DNA of 11,124 nucleotides, taken from positions 1 to 11,124 of the forward strand of contig JBFWNL010000018.1 in the NCBI GenBank assembly GCA_050251055.1. Reading direction: 5' to 3'. This document shows positions 1-11,124 of this stretch, one piece after another. Every line of letters begins with the position of its first letter. Positions within the stretch are counted from its first letter, which is position 1. The notes below the pieces were generated by a model, which was given only the letters and a program-made list of their open reading frames with translations, was not told where the DNA came from and did not search any database. The translations under genes and the position numbers were made by a program. The stretch comes from Bacteriovoracia bacterium (lineage in GTDB: Bacteria; Bdellovibrionota; UBA1018; JBFWNL01).

Positions 1-17
1 GGGCCATATAGGTGCAC

Positions 18-86
18 GACAAGTACGGTATTCTATTTGGATCCAAAAATGATCCCGGCCGGAGCGGTAACGCGGCGTGGGGTTGC
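18..86 (+). repeat. Left inverted terminal repeat (true ITR probably 1..86)
   Basis: 18..86 is the exact reverse complement of 11056..11124 (69/69 by manual alignment). Confidence 0.98.
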
Positions 87-111
87 AAAGCGGGCGGCGG
101 GCGCGTAGGGT
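83..111 (+). promoter_or_regulatory. Left early sigma70-type promoter
   Basis: TTGCAA (83-88), 17-nt spacer, TAGGGT (106-111), upstream of the first gene; mirrored at the right end. Confidence 0.7.
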
Positions 112-148
112 CTACACATCCGCATTGCACTTTTGAGAGAGACGCTTA

Positions 149-1012
149 ATGCCCAAGAAAAGGAAGCTCGCCCGTGGGAAAGTGGCACCGAGAACCCGAA
201 GACCTGTCAAGCGCCGAGTTACTGCGACTCGTAAGAAGAAACCGAGCAAAAAGCCGGACAGTAGAAAAACACGCAAGGTGGTCGCTCGACGACTTTCGCG
301 AGCTAGGCGCAGTGCTCAGAGAGTCAAGCGTCCGGCTAGACGGCCTGATCGAAGAAAAGCGCGAGCAAAACCGGCGAGAAAAACAGGCGTCAAGCGCGCT
401 GCCAGTACCAAGCGGAAACGACTGGCCAGAGTTTCGGCACCCCGCCGATCTCGCGCGAGAGTATCGCGCAAAAAGTCCGCGCCCCGTCGCCGCTTCAAAC
501 GCGACTCTATCTGGGGCCGAAGCACCCACCGCAACAGCTTTGTCAAATTCCTTCAAACCCGCAAAGACGCCACAATCCCCGAAGTACCGTATCAAGCCCA
601 AGGAATCGAGATAACCTATGAAACACCGATCAAATCGCGTCCGTCCAAACTTGAAGCCTCAATGCTTGCCGATCAGCTTTCCGCCGAAACCCGCGAGCTT
701 CTGGACGACACTGGGGGAGTTGGCATTTACCAGCGTATGCGCGTGCGCATTGATGGCGATGAGAGGTGGATTTCAAAGAAGCGACTCTTTGACCGCGATG
801 CCGATCAATACTCCCGATCTTTCGTCACGGGACTGGAAATGGCCGTCCGGGCCTACGGTCGTGCATTAGCCGTTTTGTCCGGCGATATTGACCCGGACGA
901 CCCCGAAGAGTATTTTGACGACGACCTGACTAACGTCGATTTTGAGATTCTGGAGACGGTTGTCGAAACCGTCACCGATAACGCCGAAACCCTAAAACCG
1001 CCGAAAGAGTGA
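149..1012 (+). CDS. Putative terminal protein (replication primer) with very basic N-terminus and acidic C-terminus
   Basis: First gene, upstream of pPolB as in PRD1 (VIII then I); 287 aa; about 58 of the first 120 residues are K/R; assignment rests on synteny, not recognisable homology. Confidence 0.65.
   Translation: MPKKRKLARGKVAPRTRRPVKRRVTATRKKKPSKKPDSRKTRKVVARRLSRARRSAQRVKRPARRPDRRKARAKPARKTGVKRAASTKRKRLARVSAPRRSRARVSRKKSAPRRRFKRDSIWGRSTHRNSFVKFLQTRKDATIPEVPYQAQGIEITYETPIKSRPSKLEASMLADQLSAETRELLDDTGGVGIYQRMRVRIDGDERWISKKRLFDRDADQYSRSFVTGLEMAVRAYGRALAVLSGDIDPDDPEEYFDDDLTNVDFEILETVVETVTDNAETLKPPKE
174..614 (+). CDS. Overlapping (+1 frame) hypothetical helical protein, 146 aa
   Basis: GTG start 7 nt after AGGAAG (161-166); first ~100 aa have ordinary amphipathic-helix composition. 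Confidence 0.5.
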   Translation: MGKWHREPEDLSSAELLRLVRRNRAKSRTVEKHARWSLDDFRELGAVLRESSVRLDGLIEEKREQNRREKQASSALPVPSGNDWPEFRHPADLAREYRAKSPRPVAASNATLSGAEAPTATALSNSFKPAKTPQSPKYRIKPKESR

Positions 1013-1101
1013 ATATGTATAGTAAAGCCGAGTTACTAGTGATTGCCTGCTTTGCGGGATTTGCCGCAGCACTTTTGGGTTTTGCCTATTACCTGTCATG
1101 A
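1009..1101 (+). CDS. Small single-TM membrane peptide (MNMYSKAELLVIACFAGFAAALLGFAYYLS); alternative ATG at 1015
   Basis: Not in ORF track; fills the gap exactly, with GTGA overlap on the upstream stop and ATGA overlap on the polymerase start; ~20 aa hydrophobic run. Confidence 0.7.
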   Translation: MNMYSKAELLVIACFAGFAAALLGFAYYLS

Positions 1102-2867
1102 TCGAGCGCGGATACCGTCCGGCCCTTGCGCCGCTTAAGTACCCAAAACACGCCGAGCCTTTCGCGGTCCTTGATATCGAGGGACGCGACTGGATTCATC
1201 ACGTCTTGACGGGAACCTACGACGGCAAGGAATACCGGCATTTCAAACGACATGGGGATTTTCTACGATATGCTTTCAATCAACCGACTAATCAATATTT
1301 CGCTCACTTTGGCGGAATTTACGATTTTCTTTTCACTCTTGACTGTGCTCTTTCTTCTTTGGGTAATTACCGGCTTATCGAACTTATCCCACGAGGAAGC
1401 GGAATTCTTAGTTTTACACTTGAGAGTGGCGGTCGCCGCATCACTTTTCGCGACAGTTCTGCACTATTTCCTTTCGGTCTTAAAAAGCTCGCGGCAAGCT
1501 TCGGAGTGGTCACACAAAAGGGAGAACTAGATTTCTCCAAAATCCGTGGAATCACTCAAAAGCTAATCGACTACAACGCCGCCGACTGCAAAGCCCTTTG
1601 GGAGTCTTTAGATGCCTTTTACTCAACCGAGCTTATTCGACGCTGCGGCCCTAAAACGACGCTGGCAAGCCAAGCCATGCAATTTTTGCGAACGACTCTC
1701 AAAGAGAAAATATCGGGGCTCTCCGATGGCCATGACTACTACGTGCGCAAAGCCTACGCGGGCGGGAGAGTCGAAATTTTCCGGCCGCTGTTTCTCGGAC
1801 CCTTCGAGCTGCATTGCTATGACTTCAACTCCCTATATCCCGCAGTCATGCAATCGGCTATTCCACCAACTGAGGTTGTGGACGTGCAAGATGCCTGGAA
1901 TGAAGAGGATCTAGGCTTTGTCGACTGCGACGTGGAAGTACCAGACCAGTACATGCCGCCGCTTTGGGTTAGGGAGTGGCAGGATGCGGCGGGCAAACCC
2001 CAGACTAAGATGATTTTCCCGACCGGTAAGTTGCGCGGGAGATGGCCGTCGGTCGAGTTAAAGCACGCGATTGCGTGCGGCGCTAGAATCGTGAAAGTAC
2101 GCAGCTTTTTAAAGATGCGGGCGCAGGGCGAGATATTCCGCGATTTTGTGACGGAGTTGTATGCTTTGCGAAAAAGCTCGACCGACCCGGTTCAGAATGT
2201 CACGGCCAAGTTATTGATGAATTCCTGCTATGGCCGGATGGGTATGAGAAAAGACCAGGAGAAGCTAGAACTAGATATGGGCCAGGCGGGAACGCCGCTC
2301 CCATTTATTCAGCTTAGGTCGGGAGAAATCCGATTGATCCGCGTTCCCACAACCTCGAAAGGATTTTCAAATGTGGCTATTGCAGCTTGGATTACGGCGC
2401 TCGCGCGCATCCGGCTTCATGGTATTTTGCGCAGTAATTCTGATTCTGCTTATTACTGCGACACTGACTCGATTTTCACGACGCAGGGACTTTCAGCGGG
2501 CGATGATCTCGGTTCCCTCAAGCTCGAATATTCCGTCAAGTCCGCGTGCTTTATCCTCCCCAAAACTTATATTGCAGGATCGATAGTCAAGGCTAAGGGA
2601 ATCCCCAAAGAGAAAATCACGGCGCTGGCACTTGACGATTTTACCAAAGCTTTGGAGGGTGACCGCTCCGCACTGAAATTCGACCTGGACCAGAAAATGC
2701 TAAGAATGCGGAGCGCCATTCAAAAGGGGAAACTCTTGACGCTTTCCAAGTCCGGGGCTATTAAACGGATTGTCTCGTCCTATGACAAGCGGACGCTGTA
2801 CAAAGATGAATCGGGCGTTTGGAATTCCCGGCCGATTCATTTCAATAATTGGAATTCTGTTCAATAA
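1098..2867 (+). CDS. Protein-primed family B DNA polymerase
   Basis: Exo I LDIE, Exo II FAHFGGIYDF, Exo III YNAAD, YAGGRVE, motif A YDFNSLYP, motif B KLLMNSCYG, motif C YCDTDS, KAKG; 589 aa, typical of phi29/PRD1-type enzymes. Confidence 0.97.
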   Translation: MIERGYRPALAPLKYPKHAEPFAVLDIEGRDWIHHVLTGTYDGKEYRHFKRHGDFLRYAFNQPTNQYFAHFGGIYDFLFTLDCALSSLGNYRLIELIPRGSGILSFTLESGGRRITFRDSSALFPFGLKKLAASFGVVTQKGELDFSKIRGITQKLIDYNAADCKALWESLDAFYSTELIRRCGPKTTLASQAMQFLRTTLKEKISGLSDGHDYYVRKAYAGGRVEIFRPLFLGPFELHCYDFNSLYPAVMQSAIPPTEVVDVQDAWNEEDLGFVDCDVEVPDQYMPPLWVREWQDAAGKPQTKMIFPTGKLRGRWPSVELKHAIACGARIVKVRSFLKMRAQGEIFRDFVTELYALRKSSTDPVQNVTAKLLMNSCYGRMGMRKDQEKLELDMGQAGTPLPFIQLRSGEIRLIRVPTTSKGFSNVAIAAWITALARIRLHGILRSNSDSAYYCDTDSIFTTQGLSAGDDLGSLKLEYSVKSACFILPKTYIAGSIVKAKGIPKEKITALALDDFTKALEGDRSALKFDLDQKMLRMRSAIQKGKLLTLSKSGAIKRIVSSYDKRTLYKDESGVWNSRPIHFNNWNSVQ

Positions 2868-2926
2868 TGGTGTGGGCCTAGCTGCTTTAATCGGTGGCGA
2901 CGGCTCAAACCCAATTAGGAAAATCA

Positions 2927-3274
2927 ATGAGCAAGAAAAACACCGTTGGAAAGAAATTGACCGTTCGCAAAATCGACCTGGCCAAAGAAGAACCGGGTTT
3001 CGAGTTTGAAGGCAAGTTCATGGGTACCGCTACCGGCGCGCCTTTTAAGCAGGTCGATAAGGAAGGCAACATTATCGAAAAGACCTTGACGACGGCCATT
3101 TTCGAAGACTTGGAAACCGCCGAGCGTTTTAGCGTGATTCAAGACGCGGGCCTTCGCACGAACCTTTCGGACGCCATGGTCAAAGAAGGTCAGGCGATCC
3201 GCGTCGTGAAGCTCCCGAAGGTCGCGCTTAAGGGCGGACGGACCATGAATCAGTACGACATTTACGCGATCTAA
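2927..3274 (+). CDS. Putative single-stranded DNA-binding protein (OB-fold-like), 115 aa
   Basis: ATG 2927 preceded by AGGA (2917-2920); beta-rich pattern (FEFEGKFMG...IRVVKL...NQYDIY); follows the polymerase; function inferred. Confidence 0.55.
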   Translation: MSKKNTVGKKLTVRKIDLAKEEPGFEFEGKFMGTATGAPFKQVDKEGNIIEKTLTTAIFEDLETAERFSVIQDAGLRTNLSDAMVKEGQAIRVVKLPKVALKGGRTMNQYDIYAI

Positions 3275-3280
3275 TTCCCA

Positions 3281-3439
3281 ATGGCTAAGCTTCCCTCTCT
3301 CAAAGCAAAGCCGCCTACCGCCGCTCCGAAGTCGTCTGAAGAGACCGACTTCGGAGCGGTCTTTTTTGCAGCACTCTTTGCCCTAGGCGTGCTGCTCATT
3401 TTCAAGGAAAGACACTCCCAGAATGGAAAATCCCAATGA
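3281..3439 (+). CDS. Small single-TM membrane protein, 52 aa (MAKLPSLKAKPPTAAPKSSEETDFGAVFFAALFALGVLLIFKERHSQNGKSQ)
   Basis: Not in ORF track; begins 6 nt after the previous stop; ATGA overlap with the ORF at 3436; clear hydrophobic segment. Confidence 0.7.
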   Translation: MAKLPSLKAKPPTAAPKSSEETDFGAVFFAALFALGVLLIFKERHSQNGKSQ

Positions 3440-3632
3440 CCAAGCCCCGCAAGGTGATGATGAAATTATCGACGTCTCCGAAATCGTCGCAAGGCTCGAC
3501 AAGCTCGAAAAATTCGCCGCCGAGCAAGCCCTTACCAACTCCAACACTTCTGACCGATGCGGAGAAATCGAAGCTAAAGTCACCGAGCTTGTCGAATACT
3601 GCAACTCCCTCGGCGACGACGACTCCGAGTAA
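3423..3632 (+). CDS. Small acidic coiled-coil protein, 69 aa (possible assembly factor)
   Basis: AAGGAAAG upstream; heptad-like IVARLDKLE...IEAKVTELVE; overlaps the 3436 ORF in another frame. Confidence 0.6.
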   Translation: MENPNDQAPQGDDEIIDVSEIVARLDKLEKFAAEQALTNSNTSDRCGEIEAKVTELVEYCNSLGDDDSE

Positions 3633-4242
3633 TTCGTTTCCGAGCGCCAATACCAATGCTCCAAGAGAGGTGTCCCTTGACTCAATCATCGCAAGCTCCA
3701 AGCCTGAAATCGCTAAACGCGGGCGCGGCCGACCGAAAGGATCTCGAACGGGCGGCGGAGGTGTTTCGCAAATCGCTACTAGCGGGCCTGATCGGAACAT
3801 TTCGGATAAGCCCGCTTCAAGCGGCGGAATTTCTGTCGGAAGTGGATCGCTGGACACTGGTGCGCCTAGCGCTGGAATTCCAGTTGAAGCTCTCGCCCCA
3901 GTCATCCGATTCCCCTACGGCGTTGCCGCCGCAAAAACCGGCTATGCCGGATGGGAACTAAGTAAAGAAGAGGCCGAAAGCGTCGCGCCTTTGGTTGACG
4001 CATGTATTCGCGCCTACCTGCCTGCCTCGGCCGGAAAGCACTCTCCCGCGATTGCGCTTTTTGCGACCCTCACGGCATTCACGGGAATGCGGTACATGGC
4101 GTATATCGAGTGGAAAGCGGATAACATCCGAAAAGCCGGGAAACCGGCGAAACCGGCGGAAGAGTCAAAGCCCGCAAATGCGCCCGATCCGGTGCCGATG
4201 CATGATTTTGTGACGCAGGTTGAAAGGGCGGCGAATGCTTAG
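3436..4242 (+). CDS. Membrane-associated protein with disordered N-terminus, AT-hook motif and C-terminal hydrophobic helix
   Basis: KRGRGRPKGS at 3715-3744; hydrophobic PAIALFATLTAFTGM; position upstream of the ATPase recalls PRD1 P6/P10; true start uncertain. Confidence 0.7.
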   Translation: MTKPRKVMMKLSTSPKSSQGSTSSKNSPPSKPLPTPTLLTDAEKSKLKSPSLSNTATPSATTTPSNSFPSANTNAPREVSLDSIIASSKPEIAKRGRGRPKGSRTGGGGVSQIATSGPDRNISDKPASSGGISVGSGSLDTGAPSAGIPVEALAPVIRFPYGVAAAKTGYAGWELSKEEAESVAPLVDACIRAYLPASAGKHSPAIALFATLTAFTGMRYMAYIEWKADNIRKAGKPAKPAEESKPANAPDPVPMHDFVTQVERAANA

Positions 4243-4435
4243 AGTTTCAGACCCGATCCGGCTTCACGTTCTTATCTCTGCGGCGATATCACAAGGTGCC
4301 GACATGGAGCAATACGAGGAATATCAGGATGACGGCGATAAGGCGTTGCTTCTTGATGAAACCATGGAAGACCTGCGGGCCGCGTTGCGCTACGCTGAAA
4401 GGCTGGCTTCGGTCAATGCTTCTGGGGCCGACTGA
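4235..4435 (+). CDS. Small acidic hypothetical protein, 66 aa
   Basis: ATG 4235 after AAGGG, overlaps both neighbouring genes, helical composition. Confidence 0.6.
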   Translation: MLRVSDPIRLHVLISAAISQGADMEQYEEYQDDGDKALLLDETMEDLRAALRYAERLASVNASGAD

Positions 4436-5066
4436 TGTCACGGTTATTTTCGGGATTCGAGGCTCCGGGAAATCAACTCTCTCTCGCAAGTTGTCGAGCG
4501 CTTATCCGCGCGTCGTCGTCATCGATCCGCTCGGTGAGTGGCGCTCGCGCGAGGCTACGGGTCGCGCTCATGACTTTGCAAGCTTTTCGGCCGCGTACCG
4601 CGCAGTTGACGGTCTTCCTAGTTGGCGACTGGTTTATGAACCTAACCCTTCACTCTCGCTTGAGGCGCAGGAAGCCGAGTTTGATGCTACTCTCCGCTTG
4701 CTCTACCTTGACGGACGCGAACGCCAAACCGGGGTTTGCTTGGTTATCGAAGAAGTACACCTTATCGCTCCCATTTCTTCAATGCACCATTGGTTCCGCC
4801 AAATTGTCTTTACTGGAAGGCACGCCGAACTTGCAATTATCGCAGGTACACAGCGTCCGGCTTCAGTAAACAAGGCGCTCGTTTCGCAGGCTTCGCACGT
4901 CTTTGCGGGACAGCTTTTCGAATCGCGCGACGTGAGGTATTTGCAGGAAACCTGTTCAGAGGCGATGGCGCGCCATACTCCGCATTTGCAGAAATTGCAA
5001 TTCATCGGTTTCACGCCGGGGCAGGAGCTTGAACAGGTGACCCTGACCGATGCGGATTTCCGCTGA
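4416..5066 (+). CDS. Genome packaging ATPase (FtsK/HerA superfamily, PRD1 P9/A32-like), 216 aa
   Basis: Walker A GIRGSGKS, VVVIDP, Walker B LVIEEVH, arginine-finger GRH and TQRP motifs; ATG 4416 gives a typical size. Confidence 0.92.
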   Translation: MLLGPTDVTVIFGIRGSGKSTLSRKLSSAYPRVVVIDPLGEWRSREATGRAHDFASFSAAYRAVDGLPSWRLVYEPNPSLSLEAQEAEFDATLRLLYLDGRERQTGVCLVIEEVHLIAPISSMHHWFRQIVFTGRHAELAIIAGTQRPASVNKALVSQASHVFAGQLFESRDVRYLQETCSEAMARHTPHLQKLQFIGFTPGQELEQVTLTDADFR

Positions 5067-5086
5067 AGCTAGTGCTTGAAAGGCGA

Positions 5087-5131
5087 GTCAAGAAAATTTC
5101 GCTTGACCTTTTTGGGACGCATCCCGATCCT
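5087..5131 (+). promoter_or_regulatory. Possible terminator/late promoter at the ATPase-structural gene boundary
   Basis: GTCAAG/CTTGAC inverted repeat (5087-5092, 5102-5107) followed by a T run; TTGACC (5103-5108), 17 nt, GATCCT (weak -10). Confidence 0.35.
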
Positions 5132-5156
5132 TGAAGCACAAAGGAGATTTCAAACC

Positions 5157-5252
5157 ATGGTTAAGCAAGTTCTCGGCATCGCTATCGGCGTCGCGGCGTT
5201 CTACGCGATCCGCAATTTCCTCCCCGCTTCGATCAAGTCCTACGTTTCCTAA
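5157..5252 (+). CDS. Small membrane peptide, 31 aa (MVKQVLGIAIGVAAFYAIRNFLPASIKSYVS), positional analogue of PRD1 P20
   Basis: Not in ORF track; strong AAGGAG (5141-5146); C-ending codon bias like the capsid gene; lies between ATPase and MCP. Confidence 0.8.
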   Translation: MVKQVLGIAIGVAAFYAIRNFLPASIKSYVS

Positions 5253-5260
5253 GCCTCTGC

Positions 5261-5294
5261 AAGCTCCCGCGTGATTCCCGCGCGGGAGCTTTTC
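5261..5294 (+). terminator. Intrinsic terminator-like hairpin
   Basis: AAGCTCCCGCG (5261-5271) pairs perfectly with CGCGGGAGCTT (5281-5291), followed by TTCTGCTTT. Confidence 0.75.
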
Positions 5295-5348
5295 TGCTTT
5301 CAAACCCTCATTTGCCGCTAGTCGGCGCTCCCGAAAGGACCATCCCTC

Positions 5349-6491
5349 ATGGGTCTTCGCTCTCCCGCCGCTGGCGGACAAAACGTGATTCAGTGTGAAA
5401 CTCGCCGTCGTCTCCAGACGGTCGCCTACGTCTCGAATACCGTGCGCGTGCTCGATATCCCTCGCGATACCGTCATCAAGCGCGCGGCGTTCTACCTCGT
5501 CGGCTCCACCGTCGTGACCTACGCCTCGGGCTCGCCGACGGCGACCGTGACCGGCGCGGCCGAAGCCCTTTGCCCGCGCATCGATTGCGTGATCGATGGT
5601 CAACGCACGGTGAAATCAATCACACCGCACATTCAGGAAATGCTGAACATGATCTATTCCACCGATCGCCCGATCCGGGCGCACTCGGTTGGCACCGCGA
5701 TCACGACTCAGCTCGCTGGCACGGAAAACCCGCGCGGCGCGGCGTTCCTGTATCCTTCCACGACCGACACGCTCGTCATCAATGAAGCCTTCACGGTGCA
5801 TTTCGAAATGCCGTGGGCCTACGACATGGGCCGCTCGGCTACCATGCTCAACGTGAAAAACGTGTCGAGCGCGGAATTCCGCTTCAGCTTCGGTTCGACC
5901 GACGGCCTTCAGGTTCCGGGCGGCTCCGTGTCGCTCGCGTACTCGGCCATTGACCTGAACTTTGGGGTCACGCTCATCGAAGCCCGCGACGTTCCGGCCG
6001 ATGCTCCGCTTCTGGACTTCAAGGAAACCGTCTCGCGTTACACCTACTCGGGCGAAACGCTGGACTCGCAGATCGACTTGCCTCGCGGCAACGCGCTCGC
6101 GGGCGTCGGTATCTTCGTTCGTAACGGCGGCGCGGCTCGCGCTCCGTTTGATCGCGGCCTGCGCGATATCATGCTCCAGGTGAACGGTCAGCAGACTTTG
6201 CAGAAGACCAACTTCCGCGAATTGCAGGTCGACAACAAGGAACGCTACGGCCTGAATGATCAGGTGGCTTCCGGCCTTCACGCTCTCCAGGGCTTTGCCT
6301 TCATGAATCTGCTCAAGAACGGCGATATCCGCACGGCCTTGAACACGACGATTGGGGCGGGCGTTGACCGCGTGACCCTGAACGTCAACACCGCGCCGTC
6401 CTCCGGCTCGGACAACGCGACGTACTCCACCAACCCGATGGAAGTTTCGGTTTGGAGCATGGAAATCGCGGCGGTCCCGGTTCGCGTCTAA
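5349..6491 (+). CDS. Double-jelly-roll major capsid protein, 380 aa
   Basis: Size and position as PRD1 P3; beta-rich; two related halves (LDIPR..RIDCVIDGQRTVK..N versus IDLPR..DIMLQVNGQQTLQ..N); strong codon bias; AGGA RBS. Confidence 0.88.
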   Translation: MGLRSPAAGGQNVIQCETRRRLQTVAYVSNTVRVLDIPRDTVIKRAAFYLVGSTVVTYASGSPTATVTGAAEALCPRIDCVIDGQRTVKSITPHIQEMLNMIYSTDRPIRAHSVGTAITTQLAGTENPRGAAFLYPSTTDTLVINEAFTVHFEMPWAYDMGRSATMLNVKNVSSAEFRFSFGSTDGLQVPGGSVSLAYSAIDLNFGVTLIEARDVPADAPLLDFKETVSRYTYSGETLDSQIDLPRGNALAGVGIFVRNGGAARAPFDRGLRDIMLQVNGQQTLQKTNFRELQVDNKERYGLNDQVASGLHALQGFAFMNLLKNGDIRTALNTTIGAGVDRVTLNVNTAPSSGSDNATYSTNPMEVSVWSMEIAAVPVRV

Positions 6492-6505
6492 TCCTGCTGT
6501 GCCCT

Positions 6506-6580
6506 AGGTTTCGCGCGCGCTCCTTTCTCCTCGCCTTTCTCGGTGTGAGGCAAATCGGTGTGAGGAGCGCGCGCGGATCT
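6506..6580 (+). other. Large intergenic stem-loop downstream of MCP
   Basis: 13-bp perfect stem 6512-6524/6563-6575 enclosing internal direct repeats; no U tract. Confidence 0.7.
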
Positions 6581-6606
6581 CATTGGCCGGTAATCAGAGG
6601 AGAATC

Positions 6607-7389
6607 ATGAGCATTGAGGCCAGACTTGCCGAAATCGAAAGGAATGCCGACGCACGCGCCGCGCAGGCCGGGTCGGCAAAACCGCAGGTTTCGCAGTATC
6701 TCAATCAAAGGGGCCTCACGGGTCGCCCGCGCATCCTTCAGCTTGAAGCTGAAGGCGCAAAGCTCAATGACACCAACTGGGTGTATTCCTGGCTTGCTGA
6801 GGCGGGCCTGGGTGGTGGTTCTCAATACAGCTTTGTCAGCCCGATCCAAGGTGGATTTGCCCGCTCGCAGCTTATCGCTAAGGTCGCGCGCCCGCTCATT
6901 GTCGAGCGCGGTTGGAACATCTGGGACACGCGCGACTATCTGGACGCGCTTCAGCAGAAGTACAATGAGTACGGCGTCTTTGACGGCATAAAAGACTTTG
7001 CCACAAGCGCTCCCGGCGCGATCGTCTTGGGCGTAGCTACGGCCGGGATCGCAGGCGCGGCGCTTGGCGGAGCTGCGGCCGCTACCGGAGGATCGGGCGG
7101 GTCGGGTCCGGCCGGGATCAACCTCAGTTCCGCGACTTCGAATCTCTCGGAACAGATTCCGAAAGCCCTTGGATCGATCACGGCCGATATCGTCAAGATC
7201 GCGCTCCCGCAACCCCAAAAGGTCGCAAGCCTGGTTCCGACGGGCGGCGCGGGCGTCACGGGTACCACCGGCTCGGGCGGCGCGCAGCTTGACCCGGCTA
7301 CCGGACAACCCCTAAACTCAGGTCTCATGCCTGGGATCATCGTTGGCGTCGCGATCCTCGCGGCGTACCTCATCGCACGGAGAAAATGA
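6607..7389 (+). CDS. Gly/Ala-rich, C-terminally anchored membrane protein (possible DNA delivery protein), 260 aa
   Basis: GAGGAG RBS before ATG 6607; internal hydrophobic AIVLGVATAGIAGAALGG; terminal GIIVGVAILAAYLIARRK. Confidence 0.75.
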   Translation: MSIEARLAEIERNADARAAQAGSAKPQVSQYLNQRGLTGRPRILQLEAEGAKLNDTNWVYSWLAEAGLGGGSQYSFVSPIQGGFARSQLIAKVARPLIVERGWNIWDTRDYLDALQQKYNEYGVFDGIKDFATSAPGAIVLGVATAGIAGAALGGAAAATGGSGGSGPAGINLSSATSNLSEQIPKALGSITADIVKIALPQPQKVASLVPTGGAGVTGTTGSGGAQLDPATGQPLNSGLMPGIIVGVAILAAYLIARRK

Positions 7390-7390
7390 A

Positions 7391-7654
7391 ATGAGCTGGT
7401 ACACTGACTTTCGCGATTCGACCCTCAGTCAACTCGGTCTTGGCACCGGCTCTGAAGCCGTGAAAACGCTTTCGACGGTCGCCAAAAACGCGATCGGCAC
7501 GAATAACGTCACGCAAGAACCGCCGCAGGTTCAGGCCAACCCGCTGAATCCTTCCACGTGGACCATGCCCGCGCAGATCGCCGGTATCTCGCTCCCTGTG
7601 CTCGCACTCATCGCAGGCGGCGCGTATTTCCTGTTTCGCAAGAAAGGTCGGTAA
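7391..7654 (+). CDS. Small C-terminally anchored virion membrane protein, 87 aa
   Basis: GGAG RBS, ATG 7391; terminal TM ISLPVLALIAGGAYFLF followed by RKKGR. Confidence 0.8.
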   Translation: MSWYTDFRDSTLSQLGLGTGSEAVKTLSTVAKNAIGTNNVTQEPPQVQANPLNPSTWTMPAQIAGISLPVLALIAGGAYFLFRKKGR

Positions 7655-7657
7655 CCC

Positions 7658-8389
7658 ATGAGTGATCCCCGGATTGCGGCCTACGTGGGGCAACTCACGA
7701 CGCGCAAGGAAATCTCAGACGCTAAGCAGCTTGACCGCGCGGCCGATATTCGGCGTCGTAGCGACGAGCGCCCTGCCTCCATGCAGCGCATCGTTCTCAC
7801 GGCAGATCAGCTCGCTACGGCCGCAAGCGAGGGGAATCCGTATAAGATCCCGTTCCCCTTCAACTCGTTTCACGTCGAGTCGGCAACTGACCAGACGGTT
7901 GAAGTTCGTCTCTCGCCCGACGATCAGTCGGTCCGATCGATCGCAAATTACAAGACTCTCAAGCTCAACGACTCAGGCGTCTTCACTGAAGTTCTCTCAG
8001 GCGGCTACCTGACTTGGGCCGCGCAAGCCGGAAAGACGATGACCATCGTCTTTTTTGTGGACGTGGATTGGCGTTCGGGCTCGCAGCTCTCTCTCACGGC
8101 GGGCGGCATCTCGATCTCGGACGGATCAGCCGTTGCGACTTCGGTCGTGACGCTTGCAGCGGCAGCGGCTACCGTGCTTTTTGCGGCCGACAGTACGCGC
8201 AAGCTCGGAACCTGGATCAACGACACGGGCATTACGCAGTACATCGGACCCGCGACCGTGACTGCAACCGGAGCTACCAAAGGTATGCCGGTCGCACCAG
8301 GCGCAGTGATCGAGTGGCGCAATACGGCGGCGCTCTATGCATTCAATACCGGCGCGGCGTTTGACACCGTTGCCATGAGCGAAAGCTAA
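7658..8389 (+). CDS. Putative vertex (penton/spike-base) protein, two beta-rich domains
   Basis: 243 aa, no clear TM helix, alternating beta-strand pattern, in structural operon; function inferred. Confidence 0.55.
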   Translation: MSDPRIAAYVGQLTTRKEISDAKQLDRAADIRRRSDERPASMQRIVLTADQLATAASEGNPYKIPFPFNSFHVESATDQTVEVRLSPDDQSVRSIANYKTLKLNDSGVFTEVLSGGYLTWAAQAGKTMTIVFFVDVDWRSGSQLSLTAGGISISDGSAVATSVVTLAAAAATVLFAADSTRKLGTWINDTGITQYIGPATVTATGATKGMPVAPGAVIEWRNTAALYAFNTGAAFDTVAMSES

Positions 8390-8400
8390 AAGGAGTACGT

Positions 8401-8874
8401 ATGCCCGGTTTCACTTATCCGAGCGCCGTTTCAAGCCTTATCGTCGGCGGACGCGTTTTTACAGAGGTCGACCAGCTTATCAACTTGGTTGGCTACCAGT
8501 CAGGCGCTACGAATATCCGCGCAACTTTTAGAAAAACGAATGGAAGCGCAGGATATAAAGTGCCGGTGGGCAAATCCTTTCGTGTCATGGCCTGGGAGTA
8601 TAACAATCAGGATCAGAACGTGGCCGATGGCCTTGCGCTTTGTTATACAGACAATGACGTGGGAATAAACACTTCGACAGCATTTACAAATCCCGTCTGG
8701 TTAGGCGGCGACGCGTCTGCGGCGGCAGTTTCAACGCGAGGAGTACAAAAGCCCGCACTTCAAAATCAGAGTGGAGCTATTGAGTTTTTAGTGCCCGCAG
8801 GGAAATTCATTAGTATGCAAGGCGCTGCTACCGCAGAAGTTAGATGGGTCAGGCTTTGGGGCAAGGAAATATAG
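8401..8874 (+). CDS. Putative spike/receptor-binding protein, 157 aa
   Basis: AAGGAG RBS; beta-rich with repeated VPxGK motif (YKVPVGKSF, LVPAGKFI); lower GC than neighbours. Confidence 0.55.
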   Translation: MPGFTYPSAVSSLIVGGRVFTEVDQLINLVGYQSGATNIRATFRKTNGSAGYKVPVGKSFRVMAWEYNNQDQNVADGLALCYTDNDVGINTSTAFTNPVWLGGDASAAAVSTRGVQKPALQNQSGAIEFLVPAGKFISMQGAATAEVRWVRLWGKEI

Positions 8875-9357
8875 ATGGCAGGTCGCGATACGGGAATTCA
8901 CCACCTCCGCACCTACTGGTGGAATCTCACGCCCATGAGCGTTTTGGGCCTGACTTCATTCCAAGACGCGCTCGCCTACTATGATCGCAAGTCGCCGGAA
9001 TTCGTGAAATCCATTGGGGATATCGCGGCCGGGATTCAGCAGACCAAAGTCAAAGAGGCGTTCGCCAAGGTCGCCAAAGAGAACGGCTCAGGCTACCCGG
9101 CCGTGGGCGCGTTCTACGATGCGCTCTCGGCGGGCGTCAGGACGATCTCCTCGCGCGACGTGAAGGATATCGCAGCCGGGACCGTCTCAGACATCGGTTC
9201 GGCCGCCGCCTGGGGCCTAGGTGGCCTTGTGACGCTCGCCTTGATCGGCGGGGTAGCCTACCTCGCCATCATGAGCGGCGGGGTTTCCAAGGGCCTAAAA
9301 GCGGGTGCCACGGGTGCCAGAAAGCGCATCGCGCCGATGCGACGCGCGCGTGCCTAG
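8875..9357 (+). CDS. Membrane protein with C-proximal TM helix and basic tail
   Basis: Starts immediately after the previous stop (alternative ATG 8935); WGLGGLVTLALIGGVAYLAIM hydrophobic segment. Confidence 0.75.
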   Translation: MAGRDTGIHHLRTYWWNLTPMSVLGLTSFQDALAYYDRKSPEFVKSIGDIAAGIQQTKVKEAFAKVAKENGSGYPAVGAFYDALSAGVRTISSRDVKDIAAGTVSDIGSAAAWGLGGLVTLALIGGVAYLAIMSGGVSKGLKAGATGARKRIAPMRRARA

Positions 9358-9374
9358 CTGGTCTTTGGGGGCTT

Positions 9375-9935
9375 ATGCCTAACTGGTTGGTCCCTTTAGG
9401 CGCGGTCGCCGTGGGATTGGCTCTCACGCGCGACGCGAGCGGGTCTGATGGCTCGTCAACCGATCCGTTCATGCGATGGGACACTCAGATTCGCCAGGCC
9501 GCGCAGAAGCACCGAGTGCCATGGCGCTGGATTAAGGCCGTCATGATGAACGAATCGAACCTGGGGCGAGCTCCGAGTGTGGCGCGGGGCCTGGCGTTCC
9601 CGGCCGATATCGACGGGTCGAAATCGTCGGACGGCAAGTCCTGGGGCCTGATGCAAGTCACCCTGCCCACCGCGCGCGAGATGCGGCCGGGAACGACCGA
9701 AGCCGACTTGAATAATCCGGCGATCTCGATTGACCTAGGCGCGCAGTACCTGGCCAAGATGATCGCCCGCTTTGGCCTCTCGAATCGCGATTCAGTGGCT
9801 CGCGCCTATAACGGCGGGCCGGGGTTCATGCAAAGCGAGCGCGGCCGAACGATGACCGCGCAGTACCTGGAGAAGTTTCTGAAAAACCTTGCCGAAGTCC
9901 AAAAACGCCAACCTGGCCCAGAACTGGAGTATTGA
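9375..9935 (+). CDS. Lytic transglycosylase (SLT/GH23-like) with N-terminal hydrophobic anchor
   Basis: AVMMNES (catalytic Glu), GLMQV and AYNGGPG motifs; N-terminal WLVPLGAVAVGLAL. Confidence 0.93.
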   Translation: MPNWLVPLGAVAVGLALTRDASGSDGSSTDPFMRWDTQIRQAAQKHRVPWRWIKAVMMNESNLGRAPSVARGLAFPADIDGSKSSDGKSWGLMQVTLPTAREMRPGTTEADLNNPAISIDLGAQYLAKMIARFGLSNRDSVARAYNGGPGFMQSERGRTMTAQYLEKFLKNLAEVQKRQPGPELEY

Positions 9936-9937
9936 CC

Positions 9938-10189
9938 ATGCTGCCCATTCTTTTGACCGCTTTGCCCGCTTTGATCGGTGTTTCCGAAAAACTGTTTCCC
10001 GGCACGCCCGATGCACCTAAACGTGGGGCGGAGAAAAAGAGCTACGTGCTTCGAATGCTCGAAATCGCGTGGGATGTGTGCGTTGAGCGCAATATCATCC
10101 CGGACGCGATCAAGGGACACAAGGACGTGGCCCTTGCCATTCTCTCCAAAGCGATCGATGAGACGGTTGAGGCTCTGAAAAAGAAATGA
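9938..10189 (+). CDS. Putative holin (LL-H-like pattern), 83 aa
   Basis: GGAG RBS, hydrophobic N-terminus, EKLF...GAEKK..V and IDETVEALK pattern recalling LL-H family holins; adjacent to transglycosylase. Confidence 0.5.
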   Translation: MLPILLTALPALIGVSEKLFPGTPDAPKRGAEKKSYVLRMLEIAWDVCVERNIIPDAIKGHKDVALAILSKAIDETVEALKKK

Positions 10190-10461
10190 GCCAGTGGCCG
10201 GAATGGTTAGGCCCCGCCGCCGTCGCCCTGTTTCTTGGGCGCGAGATCCTCGATTTCCTTAAGGGCCGCGTTAAGATGGCTAGTGATGATCTCACTCGCC
10301 TCTCTAGCCAAGTCGAGATACTCGGCATCCATATTGAAAACCTCAAAGCTACCGTCCAGCTCACCCAAAAGCTGGGAACCGACGTAAACGTTTTGTTTGA
10401 GAGATTGAGAAACATCGAAGGTCGGGTTGGGAAATCCAGTGGTCATGAGATTAGCTCCTAA
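10186..10461 (+). CDS. N-anchored coiled-coil protein, possible lysis accessory
   Basis: ATGA overlap with the upstream gene; N-terminal hydrophobic stretch followed by heptad repeats. Confidence 0.65.
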   Translation: MSQWPEWLGPAAVALFLGREILDFLKGRVKMASDDLTRLSSQVEILGIHIENLKATVQLTQKLGTDVNVLFERLRNIEGRVGKSSGHEISS

Positions 10462-10796
10462 AGTGGATCGAGGGCTTCCATGCCGCGAAGCCTGCGCATG
10501 TGAATTGGAGTGCCGTCGCGCGTGTTCATCCGATAATACTGATGGGGCAAGGTTTTCACCGCACCCGGCTTGCACTCCACGACTTTCCATTCAGTCGGGG
10601 TTGGCTGAATTTGATCATCGCCAAGCCCAAAAGCGTGAATCGGGAAATAGAGATGGATTATGCACTCGAAATAGACAATCGACGTGCCTTCGTTTCTCCA
10701 GTGCATCGGGGTTAGGTTGCGGTCGCCGAGTGGAAGCTCGCTTTTGTTTAGCTCGCCTAGGTCTAAGACGCGGGTTTTGTTTTTTAGGATGTGCAT
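10458..10796 (-). CDS. Hypothetical early protein, 112 aa
   Basis: Overlaps the end of the upstream minus-strand ORF; stop interlocks with the + strand stop at 10459-10461. Confidence 0.65.
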   Translation of the reverse strand: MHILKNKTRVLDLGELNKSELPLGDRNLTPMHWRNEGTSIVYFECIIHLYFPIHAFGLGDDQIQPTPTEWKVVECKPGAVKTLPHQYYRMNTRDGTPIHMRRLRGMEALDPL

Positions 10797-11023
10797 GGTT
10801 TGGCCGTCGTTTCTACGATTGTCTCAAGCTGCGCGGTGGTGACGATTTCTCGCATGGTGCGCGAAAAGCGAGCAAGTGGAAGGCACGCAGAATGCCCGCA
10901 CTTTCCGCCACATTTCTCAGCATCTATAGCAGCGAGAATAAGGCCCGGTTCATTGGTCAGTTCATGAATCGCGTCAATGAACTTTTCGTAAATGGAATCA
11001 GTAAACTTCAACTTGTGTTTCAT
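10784..11023 (-). CDS. Hypothetical early protein, 79 aa, with Cys/His cluster
   Basis: ATG follows the -10 box of the right-end promoter after 7 intervening nt; CGGKCGHSAC motif. Confidence 0.7.
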   Translation of the reverse strand: MKHKLKFTDSIYEKFIDAIHELTNEPGLILAAIDAEKCGGKCGHSACLPLARFSRTMREIVTTAQLETIVETTAKPCTS

Positions 11024-11030
11024 GCCTAGC

Positions 11031-11059
11031 AGGCTAGCGCGCCTGCGGCTCTAAGGCAA
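11031..11059 (-). promoter_or_regulatory. Right early sigma70-type promoter (leaderless)
   Basis: On minus strand TTGCCT (11059-11054), 17-nt spacer, TAGCCT (11036-11031). Confidence 0.72.
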
Positions 11060-11124
11060 CCCCACGCCGCGTTACCGCTCCGGCCGGGATCATTTTTGGA
11101 TCCAAATAGAATACCGTACTTGTC
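11056..11124 (-). repeat. Right inverted terminal repeat (truncated by window or assembly end)
   Basis: Exact reverse complement of 18..86; the match runs to the last base of the window. Confidence 0.98.

Follow-up and report, generated by a model that had tools for sequence, protein, structure and literature searches.

Contig JBFWNL010000018.1 of the Bacteriovoracia assembly GCA_050251055.1, analysed over its entire length of 11,124 nt and called the window in the following, is very probably the near-complete linear double-stranded DNA (dsDNA) genome of a tailless icosahedral phage that belongs to the Tectiliviricetes and is uncultured, with a length of about 11.14 kb or a little above it. 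The phage was probably membrane-containing. Together with its metagenomic relatives it may represent a new family-level, possibly order-level lineage of the Tectiliviricetes that infects Bdellovibrionota-like bacteria and whose capsid module repeatedly switched between linear genomes with terminal protein (TP) and protein-primed family B DNA polymerase (pPolB) and circular temperate genomes with an integrase; to this wider proposal we give slightly less than an even chance. Twenty open reading frames (ORFs), all of them open, fill the contig, 18 directed rightward and two leftward at the right end. The gene order is basic protein, pPolB, packaging ATPase, small transmembrane (TM) peptide, major capsid protein (MCP), lytic transglycosylase (SLT), small genes of lysis type and two right-end genes. 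One rightward operon-like array carries pPolB, ATPase, MCP, SLT and the membrane proteins, and the right-end pair faces inward.

A sequence-only reading of the window had proposed a tailless double jelly-roll (DJR) phage with protein-primed replication outside the described families, and the comparisons support this view. Megablast of the window against 50,697 phage records gave no match, tblastn of the MCP against the same records gave none either, and the polymerase shared at most 29 % identity with any of 165 matching phage records and fell outside the tectivirus clades. High identity to a described genus, named by that reading as the finding that would speak against it, was not encountered: polymerase and ATPase stayed at or below 29 % identity and the MCP was without a BLAST match. 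On these comparisons the lineage appears to have no close cultured phage and to be an uncultured, unclassified member of the virus class of PRD1 and Sulfolobus turreted icosahedral virus (STIV).

Capsid protein and packaging ATPase

The MCP is the 380 aa product of g09 (5349-6491, + strand). It matched no Pfam or PHROG family, and the Pfam P3 domain was not detected. An AlphaFold2 (AF2) model based on a 30-sequence alignment (predicted local distance difference test, pLDDT, 88.9; predicted template modelling score, pTM, 0.86) is nearly all beta and consists of two halves (residues ~18-180 and 197-375). Each half contains one 12-residue helix (93-104 and 289-300) following a strand pair. A strand pair and a 12-residue helix per half form a pattern typical of double jelly-roll capsid proteins. 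The ESM Atlas holds a model of exactly this protein, independent of AF2 (pTM 0.77), which overlays clusters of the PM2 coat protein P2 with template modelling scores (TM-scores) by query of 0.61-0.77, a PRD1 P3-annotated cluster (0.73) and a major capsid cluster of giant viruses (nucleocytoplasmic large DNA viruses, NCLDV; 0.70). The duplicated beta-rich capsid protein of the sequence-only reading was thus recovered in the two beta-rich halves of the AF2 model and in the Atlas matches.

Two profiles were used, A1 for the narrow MCP family and A2, a 68-sequence alignment of wider matches. Against the PDB, A1 had no meaningful match by hmmsearch and A2 found the STIV coat protein (3j31/2bbd) at 6.5e-12. 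By hhalign, A2 aligned with STIV B345 (96 %, 254 columns), Bam35 ORF18 (94 %), the MCP of Thermus phage phiKo (93 %) and the autolykivirus MCP (73 %, E 3e-5). It hardly aligned with P3 of PRD1 (12 %) or of GC1 (0.3 %), and PM2 P2 scored 0.15 by profile; the MCP of Rhodobacter phage Jorvik did not match the family profiles. By profile, the MCP family appears nearest to the capsid groups of STIV, Bam35 and phiKo. Tblastn against seven reference genomes gave matches for four proteins only (pPolB, ATPase, MCP and g12), and the match of g09 was to STIV (E 0.005). Two independent predicted models together with the profile matches make a fold other than a DJR unlikely for g09.

The gene g07 (4419-5066, +) codes for a 215 aa genome-packaging ATPase of the FtsK/HerA type (P9/A32-like) with the Walker A motif GIRGSGKS and the Walker B motif LVIEE, matching phrog_2666 at 4.6e-22. 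A profile of 22 g07 sequences aligned by hhalign with Bam35 ORF14 (98.8 %), Methanosarcina spherical virus (MetSV; 98.4 %), autolykivirus (97.6 %), STIV B164 (97.4 %), PRD1 P9 (95.8 %) and GC1 (90.5 %), the negative control, p16 of phi29, a tailed-phage ATPase, reaching 11 %. The Walker motifs and the first five of these values (96-99 %) bear out the P9-like ATPase predicted earlier. The E-values for Bam35 (5e-17) and MetSV (7e-15) were both better than that for STIV B164 (1.5e-11), and tblastn found no match of g07 in STIV. Identities to the ATPases of betatectiviruses, Jorvik and phiKo were at most 29 %, with Bam35 ORF14 the closest (28-29 %).

Replication module and genome ends

The 589 aa product of g02 (1098-2867, +) is a pPolB, as the earlier reading had stated (PF03175, 4e-46; phrog_1907, 3e-52). 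The motifs ExoI, ExoII and ExoIII, the motifs A, B and C and the KxY motif are all intact (D-I-E, YDF, YNAAD, DFNSLYP, KLLMNSCYG, YCDTDS and PKTY). The best full-length match was the polymerase of MetSV, with 25.7 % identity over 93 % of the query. In a quick tree of 15 sequences with SH-aLRT support, the window and its metagenomic kin branched outside a clade of PRD1, GC1 and autolykivirus (support 100) and outside a clade of Bam35 and AP50 (99), in an unresolved group with the polymerases of the archaeal viruses MetSV, LCBv1 and Muninn (node support 80).

Directly upstream of the polymerase gene lies g01 (149-1012, +; 287 aa). Lysine and arginine make up 45 % of its first 135 residues, the C-terminal half is acidic and six tyrosines lie between residues 148 and 255. 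Pfam and PHROG searches of g01 gave no match. The slot is that of PRD1 P8, Bam35 ORF4 and phi29 p3, and the relative L022 has an equally lysine- and arginine-rich ORF in this position. Position and composition point to g01 as a putative TP.

The inverted terminal repeats (ITRs) seen in the sequence-only reading are exact: positions 18-86 are 100 % complementary to 11056-11124 over 69 nt. In the left ITR (1-86), the 17 outermost bases (1-17) have no counterpart at the right end, and in a second sequencing run a separate contig of 251 nt spans 10894-11124 and runs 20 nt past the right end of the window. The right ITR (11056-11124) was therefore shortened by the assembly, and at least 17-20 nt are missing. 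The true ITR is at least 86-89 nt long and the genome slightly larger than 11.14 kb, so the genome described earlier as apparently complete is near-complete. Long contigs in two runs cover positions 57-11085 without differences and 103-10720 with one difference. Both break inside the ITRs, the expected outcome of de Bruijn assembly for a linear replicon with repeated ends, and no host junction was present on the full-length contigs of either run. ITRs were sought in 13 related contigs and found in none. Each ITR of the window contains an imperfect palindrome of 32 nt with the centre GGATCC (26-57 and 11085-11116), which could be a protein-binding or origin element.

The window is the entire contig C18 of an assembly of 3.77 Mb in 21 contigs with 93.5 % completeness. 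Two public landfill-metagenome runs contain C18 almost letter for letter, hence the assembly is a metagenome-assembled genome (MAG) to which C18 was assigned by binning. The same runs hold other contigs of 11,115, 11,118 and 10,758 nt at depths of 9-35, which share only matches of 21-25 nt with the window, at 4511-4531 and 6963-6987; they may come from sibling viruses of similar size that were more abundant.

Relatives and exchange of modules

Relatives of the MCP formed 30 clusters at 90 % identity, many of them on contigs of 9.4-12 kb, and 336 representatives at the 50 % cluster level (E<=1e-3). No relative was present among the 2.9 million viral contigs of IMG/VR, with the single MCP or the family alignment as query, nor among the PLSDB plasmid records; contigs of one genome per species yielded none outside the window's own kin. 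An MCP of the second clade described below was likewise without a match in the phage records. Standard virus-calling seems to miss the whole MCP family. From JGI and ENA metagenome contigs, 29 loci of the family were retrieved and examined; they are cited below by L numbers. In all 23 loci that have both genes, the ATPase gene shortly precedes the MCP gene and shares its strand. A pPolB gene is located at the left end of four of the 29 loci (L004, L006, L019, L022), and L022 repeats the whole gene order of the window, including a leftward gene at the right end. Three other loci (L008, L013, L016) lack pPolB and have direct terminal overlaps of 77-127 nt, and are therefore taken as circular, with genome sizes of about 10 kb; a tyrosine integrase gene is present in L013 (4e-20; L013:7511-8053, - strand). 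Two combinations of the one structural module thus occur in the family: linear genomes carry it with pPolB, and genomes that are circular or integrated carry it with a tyrosine integrase.

The MCP tree has two clades, clade I with the window, L004, L006, L005 and L014, and clade II with 25 rows, where genomes of the circular, integrated and pPolB types are intermingled. The MCP of the pPolB-type L022 is 73-75 % identical to MCPs of circular genomes. The polymerase tree instead places the window together with L022 and L019 (support 99). The capsid grouping forced on the polymerase data was rejected (p-AU 0.026), as was the polymerase grouping forced on the capsid data (p-AU 0.0003); the groups for these tests were named after the trees had been seen. 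From the significant incongruence of the two trees it follows that replication and structural modules were exchanged within the MCP family.

Host

The SLT gene g15 (9375-9935, +) codes for a protein of 186 aa with a hydrophobic N-terminal signal or anchor. The domain PF01464 (3e-16) and the motifs ES (E60-S), GLMQ and AYNGG are intact, in agreement with the earlier annotation, and the gene is conserved in eight of the 29 loci. This conservation of the SLT indicates a murein-containing host. The bacterial host proposed by the sequence-only reading was right, on the evidence of the SLT and of proviruses in bacterial chromosomes; the promoters that it had also invoked give no support. A scan of the contig found four sigma-70-like sites, with 4.8 +/- 2.3 expected by chance, and a terminator scan was likewise at chance level. 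Of the Shine-Dalgarno (SD) motifs noted earlier, clear ones precede some genes only.

The GC content of the contig (0.561) lies within the range of the MAG (0.553-0.600). Its tetranucleotide composition correlates with the rest of the MAG at r=0.911, random 11-kb pieces of the host averaging 0.937, with the 5th percentile at 0.897; the composition is compatible with the MAG, near the low end for host fragments. The MCP profile found relatives in four of 127 genomes of the class and in six of 401 genomes of a phylum sample, both counts including the MAG itself, and in none of 401 genomes of a control phylum, that of an alphaproteobacterial control. This enrichment is suggestive, the kin not being independent of each other. 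In L136 (G415:C1:221500-241400, ~3683-12770) a provirus with the gene order integrase, SLT, g12, MCP, ATPase lies inside a contig of 3.26 Mb. In L038 (G100:C43, ~6300-12540) a provirus is located between bacterial genes for a PLD-like protein and BamB, with no integrase among the ten ORFs tested. L137 (G346:C6) is a third integrated provirus with the same capsid family; all three come from genomes of the window's phylum. The RpoB of the MAG is 81 % identical to that of the nearest MAG, followed by 63-66 % to genomes of Bdellovibrionales, Bdellovibrio, Oligoflexia, Halobacteriovorax and myxobacteria. Among the species genomes compared, the family of the MAG is represented by no other, and the MAG belongs to a deep-branching lineage. 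The likely host is diderm and comes from the same phylum as the MAG, whose RpoB is Bdellovibrionota-like. A limited literature search found no report that links Bdellovibrionota or Oligoflexia with Tectiviridae, Tectiliviricetes or DJR prophages.

Alternative interpretations

Several points weigh against the interpretation given so far. For the capsid, the narrow profile A1 reaches only the N-terminal strands of STIV B345 (hhalign 26 %, E 7e-4, 68 columns); the strong link to STIV needs A2, in which neighbouring capsid groups might themselves account for the distant rows, and the fold assignment of g09 draws on a comparison of predicted with predicted structures and on the secondary-structure pattern. 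For the replication, g01 has no detectable similarity to six reference TPs, and ITRs were seen in none of the four pPolB-type relatives, probably a result of contig truncation. The virion, its lipid, the TP linkage and the whole mechanism outlined below are deduced from homology and position. For the host, the integrated relatives fall into the other MCP clade (II) with 29-38 % identity to the window, for which reason the proviruses are better evidence that the family infects this phylum than that this virus infects the MAG. The host link depends on metagenomic binning of the landfill runs. The spacer matching suggested by the earlier reading gave no match of the contig to any clustered regularly interspaced short palindromic repeats (CRISPR) spacer of the MAG. 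In a crude k-mer scan, CRISPR-like periodic repeats were seen on the MAG contigs C2 (~528 kb) and C11 (~100 kb), and the window has no match of 22 nt or more to these regions.

These host points leave real room for a genuine virus that infects another landfill bacterium and was binned with the MAG by chance composition and coverage. We consider this a substantial possibility, somewhat better than one chance in three. It fits the metagenomic source, a tetranucleotide correlation only just above the 5th percentile, the missing spacer match and the small number of genes with clear SD sites, and also the co-occurrence, in the same runs, of ~11.1 kb contigs at a depth 2-4 times higher and with matches to the window of only 21-25 nt. 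It has to be set against a GC content inside the MAG range and against the occurrence of the capsid family in five other genomes of the phylum sample, chromosomal proviruses included, with none in the 401 genomes of the control phylum.

A placement as a new genus inside the Tectiviridae, instead of a separate family-level lineage, appears unlikely. In its favour are a genomic backbone like that of PRD1 and Bam35, an ATPase with Bam35 ORF14 as its nearest counterpart (28-29 % identity; hhalign 98.8 %) and an Atlas model that overlays the P3-annotated cluster with a TM-score of 0.73. Moreover, NCBI files the equally divergent MetSV (10.6 kb) and phiKo (11.1 kb) there, as small unclassified 'Tectiviridae'. 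The capsid and the polymerase argue otherwise. The MCP has neither a Pfam P3 domain (PF09018/PF25514) nor a tblastn match to any tectivirus MCP; its profile match is 12 % to PRD1 P3 and nil to GC1, against 96 % to STIV. The pPolB lies outside both tectivirus clades (SH-aLRT 99-100), and the window is about 4 kb shorter than the genomes of alpha-, beta- and gammatectiviruses.

That the contig is a non-viral or defective linear plasmid, keeping capsid genes without forming virions, we regard as very improbable. Protein-primed linear plasmids exist, and among the sequencing runs the sequence was found in no RNA run. All 20 ORFs, however, are open with a coding-type GC pattern, the catalytic motifs of pPolB, ATPase and SLT are intact, and relatives at 30-50 % identity keep the full morphogenetic set in collinear order, which points to purifying selection. 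An archaeal virus, suggested by the unresolved grouping of the pPolB with the archaeal trio MetSV, LCBv1 and Muninn virus (support 80) and by MetSV as best full-length match (25.7 % over 93 % of the query), is hardly conceivable in view of a murein-specific SLT conserved across the family, family proviruses in bacterial chromosomes, one of them adjoining BamB, and a composition that fits the bacterial MAG.

Candidate vertex, membrane and lysis genes

In the reading as a membrane-containing DJR phage of a bacterium, the genes downstream of the MCP gene supply candidates for vertex, membrane and lysis proteins. The beta-rich two-domain protein g12 (7658-8389, +; 243 aa) ranks second to the MCP in conservation and was present in 11 of the 29 loci. 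Its AF2 model, of modest confidence (pLDDT 67.8), shows N-terminal helices and two beta domains. A profile of g12 (A3) aligned with the uncharacterised autolykivirus protein NVP1249A_17 (94.8 %, E 5e-8, 73 columns; tblastn 3e-4), the homology covering the C-terminal domain of g12, and g12 matched phrog_30212 at 5e-6. The following gene, g13 (8401-8874, +), codes for a small beta protein of 157 aa with homologues in L004, L010 and L021, whose Atlas model overlays small viral proteins (TM-score 0.5-0.69) and, weakly, cupins (0.37-0.44). Neither the g12 nor the g13 profile had a match among PDB sequences, and for g13 nothing exceeded 5 % among 16 vertex and spike proteins of reference viruses. 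Size, fold class and position make g12 a candidate vertex or spike protein and g13 a candidate penton protein that is single jelly-roll-like.

The earlier count of about nine membrane proteins was generous. By the Kyte-Doolittle scale with a 19-aa window and a threshold of 1.6, six of the 20 ORFs passed, one of them g12, where the signal is probably a beta strand, and three more had weaker hydrophobic N-termini. Clear TM segments are present in g04, g08, g10 (two segments), g11 and g14. The gene g04 (3281-3439, +) encodes 52 aa with one TM segment. The TM peptide g08 (5157-5252, +; 31 aa) follows an AAGGAG site between ATPase and MCP gene, the position of PRD1 gpi/P20, and is conserved in L004, L006 and L014. 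The protein g10 (6607-7389, +; 260 aa from the ATG at 6607, preceded by a GAGGAG site) is rich in glycine and alanine and is a candidate virion membrane protein. A C-terminal TM segment is found in g11 (7391-7654, +; 87 aa; matches in L004 and L013) and a C-terminal TM region in g14 (8875-9357, +; 160 aa; matches in L037 and L038). Behind the SLT gene, g16 (9932-10189, +; 85 aa) has a hydrophobic N-terminus and g17 (10186-10461, +; 91 aa) a hydrophobic N-terminus followed by a helical region, both without family match. By position, and for g16 by analogy to PRD1, these are candidates for a holin-type and a spanin-like lysis protein, respectively.

Remaining genes and coding signals

Overlapping frames and start codons were settled by the GC content per codon position, and some starts by an ATG preceded by a Shine-Dalgarno motif. 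The values of 0.61/0.33/0.61 for g05a, compared with 0.35/0.62/0.61 for the overlapping frame, identify g05a (3423-3632, +; 69 aa, acidic, helical) as the real frame. The starts of g05b and of the ATPase gene were set to the GTG at 3670 and the ATG at 4419; SD-preceded ATG codons give the starts of g08 (5157), g10 (6607) and g11 (7391). The structural genes are GC-rich, as had been remarked before. Upstream of the ATPase gene, the conserved g05b (3670-4242, +; ~190 aa) had tblastn matches in L004, L030, L031, L037, L039 and L136 and a weak match (0.008) to phrog_14882, 'virion structural protein', and is a candidate assembly or virion protein. It is followed by g06 (4220-4435, +; 71 aa), acidic, with a coding-type GC pattern and without family match. 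A search of nine small ORFs against Pfam and PHROGs returned noise only.

The basic protein g03 (2894-3274, +; 126 aa), with a possible internal start at ATG 2927, is conserved in L022 with 42 % identity. Its earlier designation as SSB-like was not upheld: g03 matched no Pfam or PHROG family, and g03, g18 and g19 had no similarity to five phage proteins that bind single-stranded DNA (ssDNA). The inward-facing right-end genes g18 (10458-10796, - strand; 112 aa; homologue in L004), in the position of the PRD1 early genes XIX/XII, and g19 (10784-11023, - strand; 79 aa; without family match) would by position be at least equal candidates to g03 for early or ssDNA-binding proteins.

The only strong terminator-like structure of the contig is a hairpin at 5261-5291 (+ strand), located downstream of the gene for the small TM peptide and just upstream of the MCP gene, with a 13-bp GC-rich stem and a T-rich tail (dG -26.6 kcal/mol). 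It is terminator- or attenuator-like; the corresponding hairpins of 25 relatives, with -7 to -19, are far weaker.

Proposed mechanism and significance

On the model of related viruses, the product of g01 would be the TP, staying linked to both 5' ends, and would prime strand-displacement replication by the g02 polymerase from the ITRs. A vesicle bearing the viral TM proteins g04, g08, g10, g11 and g14 would be the base on which MCP trimers assemble, g13 and g12 occupying the vertices, and the g07 ATPase would pump the protein-capped genome in via a unique vertex. The SLT g15 may cut murein at entry, exit or both, and g16 and g17 may assist lysis.

Tailless membrane-containing phages are undersampled, since culture methods and viral-detection pipelines favour tailed phages. 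Near-complete genomes bounded by ITRs are few in this capsid family, which is widespread in metagenomes; the contig is one of them and anchors the gene map of the group. It ties this family to a bacterial phylum, with a probable Bdellovibrionota-like host range. It also offers a close-range example of protein-primed linear and integrase-based circular replication being swapped around one capsid module, which bears on module exchange between DJR viruses and pPolB elements, polinton-type elements included.

Comparison with known systems

With the Tectiviridae (PRD1, Bam35, GC1) the window shares a linear dsDNA genome with ITRs, a pPolB gene following a TP-type gene, a P9-type ATPase gene followed by a small TM peptide and a DJR MCP, a virion-type transglycosylase and inward-facing right-end genes. 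The mismatch with the PRD1 layout asserted by the sequence-only reading is therefore limited to where the vertex genes lie and to the absence of recognisable DNA-delivery genes; the backbone is PRD1/Bam35-like, and in Bam35 the vertex genes follow the MCP gene as they do in the window. Unlike the tectivirus genomes of 14-17 kb, the window measures 11.1 kb, has no P3 Pfam domain and no BLAST-level MCP similarity, carries a pPolB outside the recognised clades and has no recognisable homologues of P2, P5, P31 or DNA-delivery proteins.

The Autolykiviridae (Vibrio phage 1.249.A) resemble the window in a linear genome of ~10-11 kb with ITRs, pPolB, putative TP, ATPase and DJR MCP, and in NVP1249A_17, the homologue of the C-terminal domain of g12. 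Their MCP, however, is a PM2-type protein of 273 aa compared with 380 aa in the window, and matches A2 at 73 % compared with 96 % for STIV; their pPolB groups with PRD1 and GC1, and their replication genes lie on the strand opposite to the structural genes. Closest in size are phiKo (11,129 bp) and MetSV (10.6 kb), both with ATPases homologous to g07, although their identities to the window do not exceed 26 %. In the cultured phiKo the genes for the ATPase (26 % identity) and the MCP (hhalign 93 %), both remote matches to the family profiles of the window, lie side by side; its record has no annotated pPolB, and its host is a Thermus species. MetSV has the best full-length match to the polymerase, but an archaeal host (Methanosarcina), and the one ORF tested did not match the MCP profile.

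Rhodobacter phage Jorvik, of the Corticoviridae-like Vinavirales, is likewise a small membrane-containing DJR phage, with an ATPase 25 % identical to g07 and a spike gene followed by an experimentally validated lytic transglycosylase gene, and it resembles the circular integrase-bearing relatives of the window. It differs in a circular genome of 8.8 kb, a replicase instead of pPolB and an MCP outside the family profiles. The Corticoviridae are circular with a rolling-circle Rep and an MCP of the PM2 P2 type, in contrast to the linear window with its pPolB. The Turriviridae have circular genomes of 16-17 kb, an archaeal host and an integrase, whereas the window is linear, 11.1 kb long, and has an SLT and no integrase.

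The group to be considered most closely is the bacterial STIV group, compared here by its published description. In the account of Yutin et al. 2018 (PMC5894146), as far as it concerns this group, it comprises contigs from PVC bacteria, Nitrospirae and Proteobacteria with an STIV-related DJR MCP and a P9-type ATPase; the replication modules vary (integrase, Rep, DNA polymerase), some contigs have inverted repeats, three a DNA polymerase and many an integrase. The undescribed family-level group suggested by the sequence-only reading stands insofar as no close described phage was found, and has to be qualified insofar as contigs of the bacterial STIV group were already reported in that account. 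In the relevant part of Woo et al. 2021 (PMC8328091) the position of these viruses is given as uncertain, in the Vinavirales, the Belfryvirales or a new order. According to Yutin et al. 2018, whose main text does not name the contig of L019, the juxtaposition of ATPase and MCP genes is not conserved in the bacterial STIV group (PMC5894146), unlike in the present family with 23 of 23 loci, and the ATPase of the window scores higher against Bam35 than against STIV. The window's capsid family has STIV as its best relative of solved structure and, like the bacterial STIV group in its published description, mixes genomes with pPolB and with integrase; measured against this description, the family probably falls in or next to the bacterial STIV group.

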